Part shown: piece after piece, positions 12,235 to 34,630 of the stretch
Numbering within the stretch: position 1 is the stretch's first letter
How the letters are laid out: the number at the start of each line of letters is the position of its first letter
Sequence record: NC_014662.1
Reading direction: 5' to 3' (one strand)
Length of the DNA: 64,000 bases
From: Enterobacter phage CC31
Made by a program: the position numbers and the translations under genes
Notes under the pieces: generated by a model
Told to the model about the DNA's origin: nothing
Seen by the model: the letters and a program-made list of their open reading frames with translations, nothing else
Database searches by the model: none

Positions 12235-12663
12235 TTAAATAATATCCGAATTCATCCAATCAATTACTGATTTAGGTAAACATACTATCACAGAAAAGAA
12301 GAAAGCAAGTATATAAGTGATAATATAAAGGAACGCTGAACCAAATGACCAAGCAACGTTCCATCCTTGGCGATATTCAGAATAGATTAGTTCTGGTCGT
12401 ATTTCTAAATCGTATGTTGAACCAACTTGCGCCATGCTATAAAAGGCAGGTGAAATTTCTCGGTCAAATCTTCGTCCGTTTTGGTCTTCATATACAGCGA
12501 TGAATTCAAGATGAGAATACTTACCGGATGAAGTTCCGGAATAAAGTTGAACTAATTCTGCTTTAATGAGCTGGTCTTTTGAAAAGTCAGGACGCACATC
12601 AGTGAAAATAGAGAAGCACCAAAAGCAAATTGCTGCTATGAGAAATTTCATACGAGTTGTCAT
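12235..12663 (-). CDS. hypothetical exported/membrane protein
   Basis: 142 aa; N-terminal signal-like helix and C-terminal TM segment. Confidence 0.4.
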   Translation of the reverse strand: MTTRMKFLIAAICFWCFSIFTDVRPDFSKDQLIKAELVQLYSGTSSGKYSHLEFIAVYEDQNGRRFDREISPAFYSMAQVGSTYDLEIRPELIYSEYRQGWNVAWSFGSAFLYIITYILAFFFSVIVCLPKSVIDWMNSDII

Positions 12664-26403: not shown

Positions 26404-26616
26404 TCATAGAACCTTCTTATAACATTCGAAATTACCTGAATAATATGCTTCAGAAACGTAATCACCTTCAACAACTAGTTGGCAAACTTTATCTGCGAGC
26501 AATTTATTAGCTTCAATTTGTTTACTAATTGCATGACCTTTTATACCTAAGAAAACGAATGCAACCAAAGTGATAGCAAGAAGAACCGTGTTGAAGATTT
26601 TTACATTCTTATTCAT
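26404..26616 (-). CDS. hypothetical signal-anchored small protein
   Basis: 70 aa; N-terminal TM helix. Confidence 0.4.
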   Translation of the reverse strand: MNKNVKIFNTVLLAITLVAFVFLGIKGHAISKQIEANKLLADKVCQLVVEGDYVSEAYYSGNFECYKKVL

Positions 26617-27193
26617 AAATACCAGTCATTTCACACCAATGTTTTCGACAGAGTGAGACGTATTTGTCTTCACCACCTAATTCAATAGTATCACCTTCTA
26701 CAATAGCATTTCCTTCTTGGTCAACACGAGCAACCATAGTTGCTTTACGACCGCAATGACAAACACCCTTCAGTTCACAGAGTTTATCTGCCGTAGCCAG
26801 AAGAGCAGCTGAACCCTTAAATAGGTTACCACGGAAATCTGTGCGAAGTCCATAGGCCATCACTGGAGTATTATAGAGGTCAACAATTTGACATAACTGA
26901 AGAACATGAGATTGAGTCAAGAACTGTGCTTCATCAACAAATACACAGTGAATGTCTTTTTGAGTCTGTGCCCATTTGAAGAACTCAAGAATGTCCATGT
27001 CTTCAGTAATAGTATTTGCTTCAGCATGTAGACCAACACGAGATACAACTTCATTTGCTGAATCTCGAGTATCAATAGCCGGCTTAAGAATGAGTGTTCC
27101 CATTCCACGCTCTTTATAGTTATGAGCTGCTGTAAGTAGAGATGCTGATTTACCAGCGTTCATTGAAGCATAGTTAAAATAAAGTTGTGCCAT
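26609..27193 (-). CDS. tk: thymidine kinase
   Basis: YFNYASMNAGKSASLLTAAHNYKERG...IHCVFVDEAQF...CHCGRKAT...VSLCRKHW matches T4 Tk; start trimmed from TTG 27208 to ATG 27193. Confidence 0.93.
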   Translation of the reverse strand: MAQLYFNYASMNAGKSASLLTAAHNYKERGMGTLILKPAIDTRDSANEVVSRVGLHAEANTITEDMDILEFFKWAQTQKDIHCVFVDEAQFLTQSHVLQLCQIVDLYNTPVMAYGLRTDFRGNLFKGSAALLATADKLCELKGVCHCGRKATMVARVDQEGNAIVEGDTIELGGEDKYVSLCRKHWCEMTGIYE

Positions 27194-27648
27194 TATTCGC
27201 CGTCCCAATCAACAACTACAATATCAACATTCGGTGTAAACATATTAATTAGTGCTTCAATTTTTTCCCAATCGCCGCCAGCAATACCTGCTCCAATACG
27301 AGGAATATGAACTTCCATTTTAAACAGAGAACCAGATAAAAATTTATCCATTTTCTGGAAAGCATTAACTAATGCGCCGTAATCAAGATTAGGACCTGGC
27401 TCATATTGAGTATAAAGATTAAAGCAAGCTCCACCTTTTGCTGCTAATGCTAAACTAAATGTTCCAAGCTTTTCGCGGGCGGCATAATCCGTAGCTGCTT
27501 TATCTGTTGATAAAATAACTGGAAATTTTGATGCAAGCTGTCCTGCTACACCCGCACCCATTGTATGAAAACAATTACATCCGTGAGCAATTACTTTTCC
27601 TTCAGAATACAGCTTAACAATATCGCCTTTAATGTATTTTACAATCAT
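27193..27648 (-). CDS. macro-domain-like protein (possible ADP-ribose binding/hydrolase)
   Basis: 151 aa; N-terminal GDIVKLYSEGKVIAHGCNCFHTMGAGVAGQL resembles the macro domain nucleotide-binding motif; pattern-level call only. Confidence 0.45.
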   Translation of the reverse strand: MIVKYIKGDIVKLYSEGKVIAHGCNCFHTMGAGVAGQLASKFPVILSTDKAATDYAAREKLGTFSLALAAKGGACFNLYTQYEPGPNLDYGALVNAFQKMDKFLSGSLFKMEVHIPRIGAGIAGGDWEKIEALINMFTPNVDIVVVDWDGE

Positions 27649-28064
27649 CTTTTCCTCAACTCGGGTATGCTTTTAAATTGGTAAGTAGCGTAGTTTTCGA
27701 ATTCATCGTAAACTCGCACATAAATTTCTTCGCCACATGTTAAATTCTTAAAAGACTTCAAATCTCTTTCAGAAAAATCTATCGATACTCCATCAATAGT
27801 TCCGGAGGATTTGGCTCCGCAACCTCGAAAATGAATTGAACCACCCGGAATAATAGCTTGGTCTTCTTTGTTGGAGTAATTGTAAAATGATACACCAAAA
27901 GCTTTCTTTTTCGGATAGTAAGAAACTTCAATATTCTTTTTAAACGAACCAGTTGTTTCAACTAGCCTACCATTAATAGCATAGATGTTATCAGGATAGC
28001 CTGGGAGTTTTTCCCAGGCATTTACTGATAATGGTAGAGCTAGCAGAAATGCTGCTATTTTCAC
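27645..28064 (-). CDS. secreted protein with signal peptide
   Basis: 139 aa; MKIAAFLLALPLSVNA-WEK cleavable signal-like N-terminus. Confidence 0.45.
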   Translation of the reverse strand: MKIAAFLLALPLSVNAWEKLPGYPDNIYAINGRLVETTGSFKKNIEVSYYPKKKAFGVSFYNYSNKEDQAIIPGGSIHFRGCGAKSSGTIDGVSIDFSERDLKSFKNLTCGEEIYVRVYDEFENYATYQFKSIPELRKR

Positions 28065-28387
28065 TTAGATAATCCCGCTATATACACCCTCAATAATGTG
28101 TCACGATATTCTTCGCATACATTCATATCAGGCGCATTATCACATAACGACTCAAGGTCTTTAGCCTTACGAGCCACCAAGGTAGACCATTTAAAGCGGC
28201 TACCAGAATCAGTTTGTCCTTCAGCGTAAGTTTTGTCAAAGTCAAATGACAAAATGTTCAAACACTCCGTATTAGTCTTTGTGCAGAATTGCTTTGCTAA
28301 TGTCAAAGAATCATCTTGTTCAGTAGAAAAATCAACTTTACACCCAGATAGAGCAAAAACTACTAGAAGTACAAACAACTTTTTCAT
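28061..28387 (-). CDS. putative lipoprotein
   Basis: 108 aa; MKKLFVLLVVFALSGC lipobox. Confidence 0.5.
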   Translation of the reverse strand: MKKLFVLLVVFALSGCKVDFSTEQDDSLTLAKQFCTKTNTECLNILSFDFDKTYAEGQTDSGSRFKWSTLVARKAKDLESLCDNAPDMNVCEEYRDTLLRVYIAGLSK

Positions 28388-28935
28388 TATTCCACCGTAT
28401 AATGAAGCATTTTACGAGATTTCAAGTAATTCGCCTTTGCTAATACTTCAGAGGCGTACTTGTTACCGGCTTTCCACTTGTTTCCTGCGTTGTATGACGC
28501 TATGGCTTTTCTCATATCACCGTTATGACGGTCCAGCCAATAACTTAACTCAATATACGCCCAAGCGGCGGAGTGCTTCCGGTTCTTTGCCATGCGGATG
28601 ATTTCTGCGTCTGTCATTGACCATCCGGCTTGTTTAACTCTTTCCCTGAGTGTAGGAAGATAATTTTGAAATATCCCGTAAGCGTGATGCCCGTGTTTAC
28701 CAGTTGTACGTAAGCCTGCAGAACTTTCCTGCCAGACTAGTGCAGCCATAATGTAACCAAGTCCATTGTTGTCATACCGCTTACTATGGTCTTTATACTT
28801 CCCATTCTTCTGAAATTGTTCACCAAACGAATATGCATATTGCAAATTGTCGAGTTGGACATTACTGAAGGTGTGTTCGGACGCAAATCCTAAAGACGAA
28901 ACTAGGAGTAACGCCGCGCATAGAGCTTTTTTCAT
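28387..28935 (-). CDS. exported lytic-transglycosylase-like (SLT-domain) protein
   Basis: 182 aa; signal peptide MKKALCAALLLVSSLGFA; WQESSAG...AYGIFQ...YNAG motifs typical of family 1 lytic transglycosylases. Confidence 0.5.
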   Translation of the reverse strand: MKKALCAALLLVSSLGFASEHTFSNVQLDNLQYAYSFGEQFQKNGKYKDHSKRYDNNGLGYIMAALVWQESSAGLRTTGKHGHHAYGIFQNYLPTLRERVKQAGWSMTDAEIIRMAKNRKHSAAWAYIELSYWLDRHNGDMRKAIASYNAGNKWKAGNKYASEVLAKANYLKSRKMLHYTVE

Positions 28936-28957: not shown

Positions 28958-29422
28958 TTATAACTTGATAATCTTTGTGCTGATTTTACCTTTCAAGCGT
29001 TTATCATTTACGAATGCCATGCGACATTGCATGGAGTGACCGCGGAACGGGTGTTCTGGGTTTGGTAGAGAGACAGTCATTCCAAGCCATAGAGTACCAT
29101 CAGTGATTTCCAAACGCTGAGGCCTGTATTCTACTTCTGGGTCAATTTCCGATGGGTCAATAGGAAGCATCGGCATTTCTAAGAACTCGTGAATTTCTGT
29201 TACGTGATTGTGTACTTTGTGGAACAGAGCGAACACATACTCTTCATCAATCTCCCGTTGGATAGCACGGTCCAAGAGATGATTAGAATATTTAATAAAG
29301 AAAGCTGGGATACCAGCAGATGCGCAAGCACTACGTATAGAATCGTTTACACTCTTGAACTCAGTCTCAAAGCGACGACGTAGCTTGTTTCGGCGGATGA
29401 ATACTTCTGGATTAGTTGTCAT
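28958..29422 (-). CDS. regB: RegB site-specific endoribonuclease
   Basis: MTTNPEVFIRRNKLRRRFETEF...LLDRAIQREIDEEYVF...EYRPQRLEITDGTLWLG...LQCRMAFVN matches T4 RegB; start trimmed from TTG to ATG 29422 with AAAGGAG RBS. Confidence 0.9.
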   Translation of the reverse strand: MTTNPEVFIRRNKLRRRFETEFKSVNDSIRSACASAGIPAFFIKYSNHLLDRAIQREIDEEYVFALFHKVHNHVTEIHEFLEMPMLPIDPSEIDPEVEYRPQRLEITDGTLWLGMTVSLPNPEHPFRGHSMQCRMAFVNDKRLKGKISTKIIKL

Positions 29423-29448
29423 TTTCAATCTCCTTTGTTGATAGGGCT

Positions 29449-29750: not shown

Positions 29751-29989
29751 ATAGATGCTTCTTTAAGGTGCTGAATAGCATTACGAATTTGAGTGATACG
29801 CTCATGAGCCAAATCAAACTCTTCGTCACTAATTTTATCAACATCTAAATCCATGTATACTTTTACATGTTCTTCTTCAAGAGCTTTAAAAATCAGGCCA
29901 AGACGAAGTTCAGCATCTTTAATAGCATTCACTTTACCGATTTTATCTTCAGTATGTGGTTTATAGCCTTTGATATCTTCAATTGACAT
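29708..29989 (-). CDS. hypothetical protein
   Basis: 93 aa ORF. Confidence 0.4.
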   Translation of the reverse strand: MSIEDIKGYKPHTEDKIGKVNAIKDAELRLGLIFKALEEEHVKVYMDLDVDKISDEEFDLAHERITQIRNAIQHLKEASMWACRSVFQPEEKY

Positions 29990-30351
29990 TACATTTCCTT
30001 GGTGAAAGTACGTGCAATAACGTCACGCTGCTGTTCTGACGTCAGAGAATTAAATCGGACAGCATAACCAGAAACACGAATAGTCAGCTGAGGATATTTT
30101 TCTGGATGTTGAACTGCATCTTCTAAAGTTTCTTTAGTCAGAACATTCACGTTCAGATGTTGGCCACCTTCAACTTTAACTACAGGTTGACTTTCAATTC
30201 CAACTTCTCGAGATTCAAGTCCAAAGAAAGTTTCTACATCAACAATAGAATCTTCTGCCAAAGTTTTAGATACAATCACACGGGCTTTATCACCATCTTC
30301 AAGATAAATTGTGCCTTTATGAGTGCCATTCAAAATTTGATATGCGTTCAT
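29989..30351 (-). CDS. grcA: autonomous glycyl radical cofactor (GrcA/YfiD-like)
   Basis: 120 aa; [57 protein letters not shown] contains the RVSGY glycyl-radical signature and closely resembles enterobacterial GrcA as recalled; ATG with AAGGAA RBS. Confidence 0.85.
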
Positions 30352-34271: not shown

Positions 34272-34630
34272 CGTGTACCTCTAATACCTTGAATAAAGTT
34301 TAAAGCATCTTCACCTGAAGGAACTTCTTTAGACTTAGATTTTCGTTTAAAGAGTTTCCACTCTTTCTTTTGGTCGAAGGTTCCACGTTGAACCTGCCCA
34401 AGATAAAATAACCACTTTCCAATCCAGTAGAATGGAGTTAAAATGCCAGCCATCCAGCCAACAAAAAGTAATTGTTCTCCATAAAGAGGACTAAAGAAGT
34501 ACAATCCCCAATATAATCCAAACCCATTAAGCATTGTGAACATAAAGCAAATAATAATAGTGCCAATAGTCCATCCGAAATTATCATATGAACCAGCATC
34601 TTTGAATCCGCGAAATAATGTTTTAATCAT
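34268..34630 (-). CDS. small 2-TM membrane protein, paralog D of tandem array
   Basis: 120 aa; two hydrophobic helices; C-terminal LNFIQGIRGTR. Confidence 0.45.
   Translation of the reverse strand: MIKTLFRGFKDAGSYDNFGWTIGTIIICFMFTMLNGFGLYWGLYFFSPLYGEQLLFVGWMAGILTPFYWIGKWLFYLGQVQRGTFDQKKEWKLFKRKSKSKEVPSGEDALNFIQGIRGTR

Follow-up and report, generated by a model that had tools for sequence, protein, structure and literature searches.

A T4-type coupled gene block in Enterobacter phage CC31 with a probable anti-DarT macrodomain gene and three predicted exported proteins, one of them Vs

Introduction

Immediately upstream of its thymidine kinase gene, Enterobacter phage CC31 carries a gene for a macrodomain-like protein and, upstream of that, three consecutive genes whose products begin with candidate export signals. 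What are these genes, do they form one system, and what would they do for the phage? We addressed these questions in a window of 64,000 nt, the whole stretch of DNA that was analysed (NC_014662.1, one strand). The macro and SLT assignments of T4 tk.4 and vs.1 have been in the literature since 2003-2006, with the SLT similarity of T4 vs.1 reported in 2006. The explanation that we favour, with a probability of roughly 0.7, is a coupled gene block of the T4 type in which Tk.4 would be an anti-DarTG2 macrodomain and, independently of it, a Sec-exported trio of proteins would modify the wall or envelope.

The block is the Karamvirus version of a T4 gene block

The window belongs to a Karamvirus, a T4-like Enterobacter phage, and shares 99% DNA identity with Enterobacter phage EnA02. 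Its gene order on the minus strand is regB, vs.1, vs, (ORF2), tk.4 and tk. Judged by its sequence, this is the prereplicative gene block of T4 in its Karamvirus form, made up of T4 orthologs except for the extra ORF2. A sequence-only reading had described four minus-strand ORFs here, one macro-like and three with export signals, and all of them are present among the following features:

28958..29428, minus strand: regB, site-specific endoribonuclease, upstream of vs.1 (Pfam REGB_T4, 9.7e-70)
28387..28935, minus strand: Vs.1 ortholog, 182 aa, predicted exported SLT lytic transglycosylase-like protein
28061..28387, minus strand: Vs ortholog, 108 aa, predicted lipoprotein
27645..28064, minus strand: ORF2, 139 aa, GTG start, predicted exported, phrog_4957
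27193..27648, minus strand: tk.4 / AdfM ortholog, 151 aa, single-domain macrodomain, predicted cytoplasmic
26609..27193, minus strand: tk, thymidine kinase, downstream end of the coupled chain (Pfam TK, 1.7e-54)

From vs.1 to tk the genes are joined by stop/start overlaps (TAATG, GTGA, ATGA and TAATG). The start of tk is most likely the ATG that overlaps the tk.4 stop (TAATG, 27193) and not a TTG at 27208; tk is annotated as 585 nt in Entb_43. No minus-strand terminator was found within the block, whose genes would be expressed as one translationally coupled string. No T4-type MotA-box middle promoter was found close to the block; on the minus strand the nearest one lies at 34.5 kb. Sigma-70-like promoter matches were not above chance. 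The 'early' timing of the block therefore rests on knowledge of T4, whose counterpart genes are early (prereplicative), and not on sequence.

Most Straboviridae loci that we compared keep the order regB-vs.1-vs. Among the exceptions are the Acinetobacter phages Ac42 and AB1I1M-1, where the gene ahead of vs.1 encodes a homing endonuclease, and RB16, whose vs.1 is split. RB16 and PM2 were considered as natural cases of vs without vs.1 and were set aside: in both, a simple +1 frameshift, which may be a sequencing error, leaves the catalytic part intact but in the next frame.

Tk.4 is a macrodomain with an altered active site

The window Tk.4 is 52% identical to T4 Tk.4 over its full length, matches phrog_335 (1.9e-64), and lies between vs and tk in conserved synteny with T4 and the relatives examined. 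Pfam Macro (PF01661) matched it slightly below the 22-bit cut-off (20.0 bits, E 6.8e-4), and phmmer against the PDB returned macrodomain matches down to 9e-10. A family profile (7 members) searched against the PDB matched BT1257 (6e-14), Poa1p (2e-12), TARG1 (2e-8) and DarG (1e-6 / 2e-5), the best of these matches spanning positions 3-147 of the 151 residues. We conclude from these profile comparisons that the ORF described as macro-domain-like in the sequence-only reading is a genuine macrodomain of a Poa1p/BT1257-like branch. The heuristic export rule described below detected no signal peptide on it.

Active-site residues of DarG, TARG1 and the PhiKZ AdfM were taken from PMC13309987. Three ADP-ribose-binding elements are invariant in the Tk.4 family (H-G-C-N25-C, M-G-A-G-V-A and I-G-A-G-I-A-G-G), and the Asn, which follows strand 2, and the two Gly-rich loops align with the DarG, TARG1 and PhiKZ segments. 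N25 (codon 27576-27574) corresponds to DarG N22 and PhiKZ N23. At the position of the catalytic Lys (T. aquaticus DarG K80, PhiKZ K78, TARG1 K84) the window protein has Q81 (codon 27408-27406), which is invariant in 7/7 family members, with MAFFT and HMM alignments in agreement; the position of TARG1 D125 is Ala or Gly in the family. The NCBIfam DarG model (338 positions) matched Tk.4 only at positions 2-45, with 21 bits against a cut-off of 250, and no DarT-binding second domain was found in what is a single domain of 151 aa.

These features place T4 Tk.4 and two other macrodomains at different distances from the window protein. T4 Tk.4 has the same size and the same place upstream of tk, and shares all family-invariant residues with the window copy; the differences are the Enterobacter host and the extra exported ORF2, which here separates tk.4 from vs. 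The DarG2 macrodomain (PDB 5M3I, 5M31/5M3E) and PhiKZ gp104 AdfM share the fold class and the active-site Asn. However, both have the catalytic Lys where the Tk.4 family has Gln, and the C-terminal DarT-binding domain of DarG2 is absent from Tk.4. Since Tk.4 sits on a different branch, it is best described as an analog, not a member, of the DarG2 / PhiKZ-type AdfM macrodomains.

Tk.4 and DarTG2-type defence

An anti-DarTG2 role of a Tk.4-type macrodomain is already published. HIDEN-SEQ gave T4 tk.4 as its only hit against DarTG2, T4 became sensitive when the gene was cleanly knocked out, and the gene was named AdfM, for anti-DarT factor Macrodomain (2025 preprint, 10.1101/2025.11.20.689424). 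In the same work T4 tk.4 showed no significant depletion in two other tables, LB vs M9 and one further comparison. A different phage macrodomain, PhiKZ gp104, strips DarT2-installed ADP-ribose in vitro, and its conserved active-site Asn was shown to matter (PMC13309987).

By analogy with T4 tk.4, the window Tk.4 most likely protects the phage from DarTG2-type defence, as the sequence-only reading had supposed in proposing that the macro domain counters DarT-type toxins; its agreement with published genetics is through the ortholog, from which we infer the role. The protein would bind ADP-ribosylated phage DNA and remove the ADP-ribose that DarT2 puts on thymidines, an enzymatic step that we infer as well. 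Because the Lys of DarG, TARG1 and PhiKZ AdfM is missing from Tk.4-type anti-DarT macrodomains, these proteins may use a chemistry, or have a real substrate, other than the one assumed.

It is conceivable, then, that DarT2-modified DNA is not the main substrate of Tk.4, and that the anti-DarTG2 effect is a side activity or specific to T4. The enzyme would act instead on ADP-ribose-1''-phosphate, on O-acetyl-ADP-ribose, or on protein or RNA marks written by phage Alt/ModA/ModB-type enzymes or other host toxins. Such a role is in keeping with the nearest solved relatives, Poa1p (an ADP-ribose-1''-phosphate phosphatase) and the uncharacterised BT1257, which rank ahead of DarG, and with the long-standing annotation of the family as 'A1pp phosphatase'. 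The replacement of the DarG/TARG1 Lys by an invariant Gln and of TARG1 D125 by Ala or Gly points the same way, as does the short match to the DarG model, confined to the first 45 residues. Yet tk.4 was the one significant, knockout-confirmed DarTG2 hit of an unbiased T4 transposon screen, it was not significantly depleted in the two other tables, and the Asn that is important in PhiKZ AdfM is kept as N25. We consider a different main substrate to be unlikely, though still worth weighing, and retain the anti-DarTG2 reading.

Three consecutive genes encode predicted exported proteins

In place of SignalP and LipoP we used a heuristic export rule: an n-region with K/R; then a hydrophobic stretch of nine residues that scores 2.2 or more on the Kyte-Doolittle scale and is free of acidic residues; and lastly either a -3/-1 site or a lipobox ([LVI][ASTVI][GAS]C) that closes the h-region. 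Of the 111 ORFs in the window that do not overlap one another and are 60 aa or longer, five passed, three of which are the consecutive vs.1, vs and ORF2 (permutation P = 0.0047 for a run of at least three consecutive passing ORFs). An N-terminal export signature was present in every correctly started ortholog of the trio across 10-12 divergent phages, so that the export signals first noticed in the window are conserved. As annotated, 10/11 orthologs of ORF2 and 10/11 of Vs.1 passed the rule; the failures, CkP1 ORF2 and Ac42 Vs.1, are probably mis-annotated starts. The signal sequences themselves are poorly conserved across orthologs, as expected for signal peptides, and Cys pairs are conserved in mature Vs and ORF2. 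NCBIfam gave no match for Vs.1, Vs or ORF2. The three proteins would be Sec-exported early in infection.

Vs.1, a transglycosylase-like protein

Vs.1 is 64% identical to T4 Vs.1, and about 2,000 phage records carry it. Pfam SLT (PF01464) matched residues 61-155 with 25.7 bits, above the 21.3-bit cut-off (E 8.7e-6), which bears out the SLT motifs first noticed from the sequence. The motifs W-Q-E70-S-S, A-Y-G-I-F-Q-N and S-Y-N-A-G are present; across 11 orthologs they are invariant or nearly so, the second in the form AYGxFQN, and the Glu (Glu70, codon 28728-28726) is invariant. The predicted signal peptide covers residues 1-18 (28935-28882), with cleavage between GFA and SE. No solved homolog was found by sequence, and no demonstrated activity for any member of the family was found in the literature searched. 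Its sequence marks Vs.1 as lytic transglycosylase-like, of family 1 (Slt70-type), with the catalytic Glu intact and export predicted. From the periplasmic side it would cleave the glycan strands of peptidoglycan. Several GenBank records mislabel Vs.1 as RegB or endoribonuclease.

Like the soluble bacterial Slt70-type transglycosylases, Vs.1 has E-S, GxxQ and (A/S)YNxG motifs and a predicted cleavable signal peptide. It is much smaller, consisting of the catalytic domain and a short conserved N-terminal segment, and it is the product of a phage early gene, neither a virion nor an end-lysis enzyme. A functional parallel, by description only, is the Kayvirus Tgl, which PMC7150955 describes as a Sec-secreted phage protein with transglycosylase motifs that uses a host secretion system instead of a holin; it comes from a Gram-positive phage and belongs to an unrelated, IsaA/SceD-like family.

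ORF2, an orphan protein with predicted export

ORF2 falls in the orphan family phrog_4957, is absent from T4, and has a patchy distribution. Its predicted signal peptide (residues 1-16, 28064-28017) would be cleaved between VNA and WE to leave a 14-kDa protein, a beta-sandwich in the predicted structure, with one conserved Cys pair. A fold search in BFVD returned its own family only, and fold searches were otherwise generic. Word-index homolog searches with a single ORF2 or Vs sequence recovered close relatives only; a concatenated Vs+ORF2 profile search rescued 7 and 19 members. Four large multi-stretch ORF2 matches from exhaustive HMMER searches were rejected as repetitive Big_9/cadherin-like adhesins, compositional or Ig-like noise and not homology.

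The export signature of Vs conflicts with its annotation

For about 50 years Vs has gone by the name of a tRNA-synthetase modifier, and 'valyl-tRNA synthetase modifier' is its annotation throughout T4-like genomes, more than a thousand of them. The window protein, encoded directly downstream of vs.1, is 33% identical to T4 Vs and matches PHROG 1256 (1.5e-31); PF26829 is found on its close homologs. Its signal region (28387-28340) contains the lipobox L13-S14-G15-C16, and L-[SFLV]-G-C is present in the Karamvirus relatives (P0006-P0012), so the protein that had been called a lipoprotein from the window alone keeps that call and gains a name. Other orthologs, including that of T4, have a type-I signal site and no lipobox. 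The lipobox is specific to the Karamvirus clade, with a lipid anchor predicted there and a soluble protein elsewhere. That clades differ in having a type-I site or a lipobox makes sense only for an exported protein.

Mature Vs, of 93 aa and 10.5 kDa, is predicted to fold into a helical bundle, and its four conserved Cys are arranged as C-x6-C and C-x9-C. Its predicted structure matched only generic helical bundles in the PDB. With a signal peptide or lipobox in 12/12 orthologs and the four Cys, the predicted location appears incompatible with binding to cytoplasmic valyl-tRNA synthetase (ValRS). The export signature of the family therefore conflicts with the universal annotation of Vs as a modifier of that enzyme. 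A literature search found no paper on Vs localisation and likewise none on ValRS modification.

If the annotation is right, Vs is the cytoplasmic tau peptide that binds host ValRS, its hydrophobic N-terminus is no working export signal or a membrane tether only, and the trio reduces to an exported pair (Vs.1, ORF2) around a cytoplasmic gene. The label is universal in T4 and its relatives; reportedly, older T4 genetics places the vs locus in this interval and older biochemistry has a peptide of some 10 kDa co-purifying with ValRS. Cleavage would bring T4 Vs from 13.1 kDa down to a predicted 11.0-11.2 kDa, which is near the size of that peptide and suggests that the ORF assignment may be right; but the same match implies a cleaved signal peptide, hence export. 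Equally hard to reconcile with a cytoplasmic Vs are an n-h-c signal of variable sequence kept in 12/12 orthologs, its conversion to a canonical lipobox in one clade, four conserved Cys in a 93-aa bundle as is typical of oxidising compartments, and the position of vs, flanked by and translationally coupled to genes for two other predicted exported proteins. The HIDEN-SEQ authors, in line with the annotation, read the M9 phenotype of vs as one of translation under nutrient limitation (10.1101/2025.11.20.689424). We find a cytoplasmic Vs rather doubtful.

As a tentative proposal, possible but well short of probable, Vs would be a Sec-exported, disulfide-bonded periplasmic protein, lipid-anchored in Karamviruses, that forms an early envelope/peptidoglycan-remodelling module with Vs.1 and, in many genera, ORF2.

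The predicted exported trio is independent of Tk.4

Acinetobacter and Proteus phages with no tk.4 at the locus still carry the vs.1-vs-ORF2 trio, and TransTerm terminators have been reported between vs and tk.4 in RB69 and RB49. Because the trio persists where tk.4 is absent, we conclude that tk.4 and the exported trio are independent neighbours and not one system. Vs.1 in turn is found with neither Vs nor ORF2 in Vi1-like phages, FelixO1-like phages and one Aeromonas phage, so the three need not form an obligate complex.

Transposon data from T4 bear on the fitness value of these genes (10.1101/2025.11.20.689424). Even in LB, insertions in vs and in vs.1 were about 10-fold rarer than in the neighbouring genes. 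In M9 vs LB, vs insertions were depleted with a log2FC of -2.19 (adjusted p 0) and vs.1 insertions with a log2FC of -0.87 (p 0.0055, adjusted p 0.155); vs was the strongest fitness determinant in minimal medium, with tk.4 unaffected. The weak vs.1 phenotype could be polarity on vs.

As the fold searches gave generic matches only, the roles that we assign to Vs and ORF2 are guesses. In our preferred reading Vs, modelled as a disulfide-stabilised helical bundle, and ORF2, modelled as a disulfide-bonded beta-sandwich, would be periplasmic accessories that were joined to Vs.1 in the Straboviridae. Modification of the infected cell's wall or envelope, to the benefit of the infection, is the most likely function of the trio, which would not serve lysis at the end of the cycle. 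The sequence-only reading had suggested envelope remodelling or exclusion for it, a reasonable candidate role.

Vs, ORF2 or both might instead regulate Vs.1, as inhibitor, anchor or activator, in a periplasmic complex that spares the host an early death. An early exported muralytic enzyme plausibly needs control, vs.1 and vs are strictly adjacent with a stop/start overlap in most Straboviridae examined, and both are depleted to a like extent in T4. That co-depletion can be explained by polarity, however; Vs.1 homologs lack a Vs-like neighbour in the Vi1-like, FelixO1-like and Aeromonas T4-like phages, and the fold search with Vs found no likeness to known lysozyme or transglycosylase inhibitors. 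We judge such regulation improbable.

Least likely of all is a module for superinfection exclusion or protection from lysis from without, with Vs.1 incidental and Vs and/or ORF2 acting in the periplasm on incoming tail lysozymes or DNA entry, like T4 Spackle and Imm: early small periplasm-directed proteins are the class of Spackle ('sp spackle periplasmic protein' in the T4 table), ORF2 is as patchy as an accessory or arms-race gene, and Vs weakly matches the Cor superinfection-exclusion lipoprotein family (phrog_1119, E 0.0013), but that match (residues 1-76) is marginal and falls mostly on the signal-peptide region, vs and vs.1 behave as conserved, core-like genes instead of turning over fast, and the T4 vs phenotype comes from single-phage competitive growth in minimal medium, not from a superinfection assay.

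Implications

The genes of this block can now be named, the macro gene as the AdfM/Tk.4 ortholog and the SLT gene as Vs.1. The block is ordinary in kind, and its exception is an exported-looking Vs at odds with the textbook label. Tk.4 probably counters DarTG2, which matters for host range among Enterobacter strains that carry DarTG. In every sequence hallmark Vs resembles an exported protein, and its gene lies within a conserved trio of genes for predicted periplasmic proteins. If Vs is periplasmic, its link to ValRS would be an indirect or post-lysis association, or Vs would also act outside the cytoplasm, and the fitness defect of T4 vs in minimal medium would be an envelope phenotype. Settling where Vs resides would shed light on a T4 accessory gene that, unlike most, has a clear conditional fitness phenotype.

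Gene layout of the locus

On sequence grounds the phage is a T4-like Karamvirus. In the 3.1 kb surrounding the minus-strand block regB-vs.1-vs-ORF2-tk.4-tk, DNA identity is 99.1% to Enterobacter phage EnA02 and ~94% to PG7-like phages. ORF calling of the window recovered, exactly as described, the four minus-strand ORFs that a sequence-only reading had claimed. Three of the encoded proteins are orthologs of T4 proteins (Tk.4/AdfM, Vs and Vs.1), and the fourth, ORF2, belongs to a small orphan family:

27193-27648, minus strand: Tk.4, macrodomain ORF, 52% identity to T4 Tk.4
27645-28064, minus strand: ORF2, putative exported protein of 139 aa, phrog_4957
28061-28387, minus strand: Vs, annotated 'valyl-tRNA synthetase modifier', 33% identity to T4 Vs
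28387-28935, minus strand: Vs.1, transglycosylase (SLT)-like, 64% identity to T4 Vs.1

The annotation of the close relative Entb_43 reads 'macro domain-containing protein', two hypothetical proteins, 'transglycosylase SLT domain-containing protein' and regB. Comparison with the T4 locus, where tk.4 directly adjoins vs, revealed no counterpart of ORF2. Because the genes overlap at their junctions (vs.1/vs TAATG, vs/ORF2 GTGA, ORF2/tk.4 ATGA, tk.4/tk TAATG) and no minus-strand terminator was found within the block, vs.1, vs, ORF2, tk.4 and tk are predicted to be translationally coupled. The tk start is most likely the ATG at 27193, not the TTG given by the ORF finder; with this start tk agrees with the 585-nt tk annotated in Entb_43.

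Upstream of regB, a position conserved as in T4, lies a Vs.6 ortholog (29989-30351, minus strand), a 120-aa autonomous glycyl-radical cofactor (GrcA-like; Pfam Gly_radical 1.6e-17). In the whole window, 17 copies of the MotA-box-like pattern TGCTTNA-N10-14-TANNNT are present against 6.0 expected (0/100 shuffles reached 17), which is consistent with T4-type middle promoters. None of them adjoins the tk.4-vs.1 block; on the minus strand, the closest upstream copy is at 34510-34533.

Tk.4 is a macrodomain that differs from DarG at the active site

Pfam Macro scored Tk.4 at 20.0 bits, slightly short of the 22-bit threshold. A phmmer search of the PDB with window Tk.4 matched Poa1p, BT1257, a Streptomyces macrodomain, TARG1/OARD1 and alphavirus nsP3 macrodomains. 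A family profile built from seven orthologs of different genera matched, near full length, BT1257 (6e-14), Poa1p (2e-12) and TARG1 (2e-8), as well as the DarG macrodomains of M. tuberculosis (1e-6) and T. aquaticus (2e-5). These matches confirm the macro domain proposed for this 151-aa ORF, and despite the subthreshold Pfam score the assignment is secure at the level of sequence. The family is widespread, with members in 2,825 phage records.

Active-site residues were mapped by MAFFT and by HMM alignment, with concordant results. DarG sequences were taken from PDB alignments via PhiKZ gp104, and the TARG1 sequence was checked against the PDB (2lgr residues 2-152 identical, no mismatches). PhiKZ gp104 carries the active-site Asn and Lys of DarG (N23/K78 versus N22/K80; PMC13309987). 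The Asn is kept in the Tk.4 family, where window N25 corresponds to DarG N22 and PhiKZ N23, whereas the catalytic Lys of DarG, PhiKZ AdfM and TARG1 is Gln in 7/7 Tk.4-family proteins (window Q81, motif L-Y-T-Q, versus DarG K80 and PhiKZ K78). The TARG1 D125 position is Ala or Gly in the family, and the NCBIfam DarG model matched only residues 1-45 of window Tk.4, with a score far under the cut-off. Window Tk.4, an ortholog of T4 AdfM, is therefore no DarG-type macrodomain in the strict sense and falls in the Poa1p/BT1257-like branch.

The suggestion that the macrodomain counters DarT-type toxins was right, and is already published for the T4 ortholog. In a T4 transposon screen, tk.4 was the sole significant hit on a host expressing DarTG2, and a clean tk.4 knockout made T4 DarTG2-sensitive; the gene was renamed adfM (10.1101/2025.11.20.689424). 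The PhiKZ macrodomain gp104, also named AdfM in a separate paper, strips DarT2-installed ADP-ribose off DNA in vitro (PMC13309987). How window Tk.4 would neutralise DarT2 we infer.

The macrodomain and the exported genes are neighbours

The order regB-vs.1-vs-ORF2-tk.4-tk is found in Karamvirus, Jiaodavirus, Roskildevirus, Gelderlandvirus, Tegunavirus and a Providencia phage. The vs.1-vs-ORF2 trio is kept in phages of Proteus (Bragavirus) and Acinetobacter (Twarogvirinae), whose locus lacks tk.4, and a predicted terminator separates vs from tk.4 in RB69 and RB49. The macrodomain thus adjoins the exported genes without forming one system with them.

Export signals of Vs.1, Vs and ORF2

Export was scored by an explicit rule rather than a dedicated predictor: a basic n-region, a hydrophobic 9-mer without an acidic residue, then a -3/-1 site or lipobox. 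It is satisfied by 5/111 non-overlapping window ORFs, three of which, ORF2, Vs and Vs.1, are consecutive (permutation probability of such a run, 0.0047). The locus was also compared across ten more Straboviridae, from eight host genera; every correctly start-annotated trio ortholog keeps the n-h-c N-terminal architecture while its sequence drifts freely. The three adjacent export signals of the earlier reading are thus borne out by the rule and by the orthologs, and the comparative evidence for export is stronger than the rule-based counts within the window.

The Vs signal site is type-I in most clades, including T4, and a canonical lipobox in the Karamvirus clade. The window Vs has the lipobox L-S-G-C16, and its Karamvirus relatives (P0006-P0012) have a lipobox as well, in keeping with the lipoprotein that had been called in the trio. 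A switch from a type-I site to a lipobox is meaningful for exported proteins alone, which argues that Vs is exported. Ortholog alignments show four retained cysteines in mature Vs (C-x6-C, C-x9-C); in mature ORF2 they show a single cysteine pair together with an invariant N-terminal Trp.

Elsewhere in the window, a 70-aa ORF overlapping the tk end (26404-26616, minus strand), one of the five signal-positive ORFs, begins with a hydrophobic signal or anchor and contains two Cys close to its C-terminus; it had no match in Pfam or PHROG. A 142-aa ORF (12235-12663, minus strand) has a signal-peptide-like N-terminus (MTTRMKFLIAAICFWCFSIF...) and no NCBIfam match.

Confident AlphaFold models, computed from alignments of database homologs, predict a beta-sandwich with one helix for mature ORF2 (pLDDT 84, pTM 0.80) and a four-to-five-helix bundle for mature Vs (pLDDT 86.5). 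Vs is confined to Straboviridae; ORF2 is present in a subset of 245 records. Among 1.84 billion representatives, an exhaustive HMMER search yielded no more than 23 ORF2-like clusters; the few large matches, repetitive Ig/cadherin-like adhesins, are best taken as noise. The tk.4 macro gene of Aeromonas phage avDM9-HANS is immediately preceded, in the place that ORF2 holds in the window, by a gene for a predicted lipoprotein of 146 aa (L017:2851-3291; lipobox I-Y-G-C); the locus has no obvious Vs.

Vs.1 is a conserved transglycosylase-like protein

Window Vs.1 exceeds the Pfam SLT threshold, and the family-1 transglycosylase motifs W-Q-E70-S-S, A-Y-G-x-F-Q-N and S-Y-N-A-G are invariant or nearly so in eleven orthologs, so the soluble-lytic-transglycosylase motifs noticed earlier hold up; SLT similarity of T4 vs.1 and five relatives was already reported in 2006. 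Vs.1 is the broad core of the trio (~2,000 records), and in Vi1-like and FelixO1-like phages it stands alone, with a signal peptide. ECML-4 gp116 (L015:1711-2328; Vi1-like, Ackermannviridae) and phage E9 CDS0120 (L018:1663-2211) are such signal-bearing SLT proteins; neither has a Vs- or ORF2-like neighbour, and the E9 gene directly follows rIIA/rIIB.

Many GenBank records name the Vs.1 gene 'endoribonuclease', 'RegB' or 'site-specific RNA endonuclease' (among them H147, H152, H161, H162, H168, H179 and H180; Yersinia phage TG1, L007:1624-2175), which looks like annotation spill-over from the adjoining regB. The gene is annotated as split or truncated in RB16 (L016:1530-2178) and Proteus phage PM2 (L012:1577-2145). 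On translation, each showed a single +1 frameshift, and the next frame encodes an intact catalytic region. A sequencing error, a pseudogene or recoding could each account for the shift.

Fitness data and the annotation of Vs

T4 transposon data are the only functional handle on the trio. In T4, vs, vs.1 and tk.4 are all non-essential in LB, and vs shows the strongest depletion in M9-glucose (log2FC -2.19, adjusted p 0); vs.1 trends in the same direction (-0.87, p 0.0055, adjusted p 0.155) and tk.4 is unaffected (-0.07) (10.1101/2025.11.20.689424). Insertions in vs and vs.1 are ~10-fold below their neighbours even in LB (10.1101/2025.11.20.689424). The vs.1 effect may arise through polarity of its insertions on vs. 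An action of the trio on the envelope, as first proposed, would be plausible. As a side result with no bearing on the exported genes or the macrodomain, the same LB versus M9 comparison (HIDEN-SEQ Extended Data Table 6, sheet S8) shows significant enrichment of nrdA, nrdB and td insertions in M9 (log2FC +1.4 to +2.3) and an upward trend for regB (+1.17, p 0.049).

In every annotation Vs is named as a modifier of host valyl-tRNA synthetase. Because that synthetase is a cytoplasmic enzyme, the predicted export of Vs conflicts with its label; we found no paper on this conflict in the literature searched. The purified modifier (tau) is ~10 kDa, and predicted T4 Vs is a 13.1-kDa precursor, or 11.0-11.2 kDa once the signal peptide is cleaved. 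If anything, this suggests that the T4 ORF assignment is right and that the protein is processed.

The absence of the catalytic lysine from Tk.4-type AdfM is a modest point beyond the literature searched, as is the exported nature of Vs, which would be of the lipoprotein type in the Karamvirus clade.
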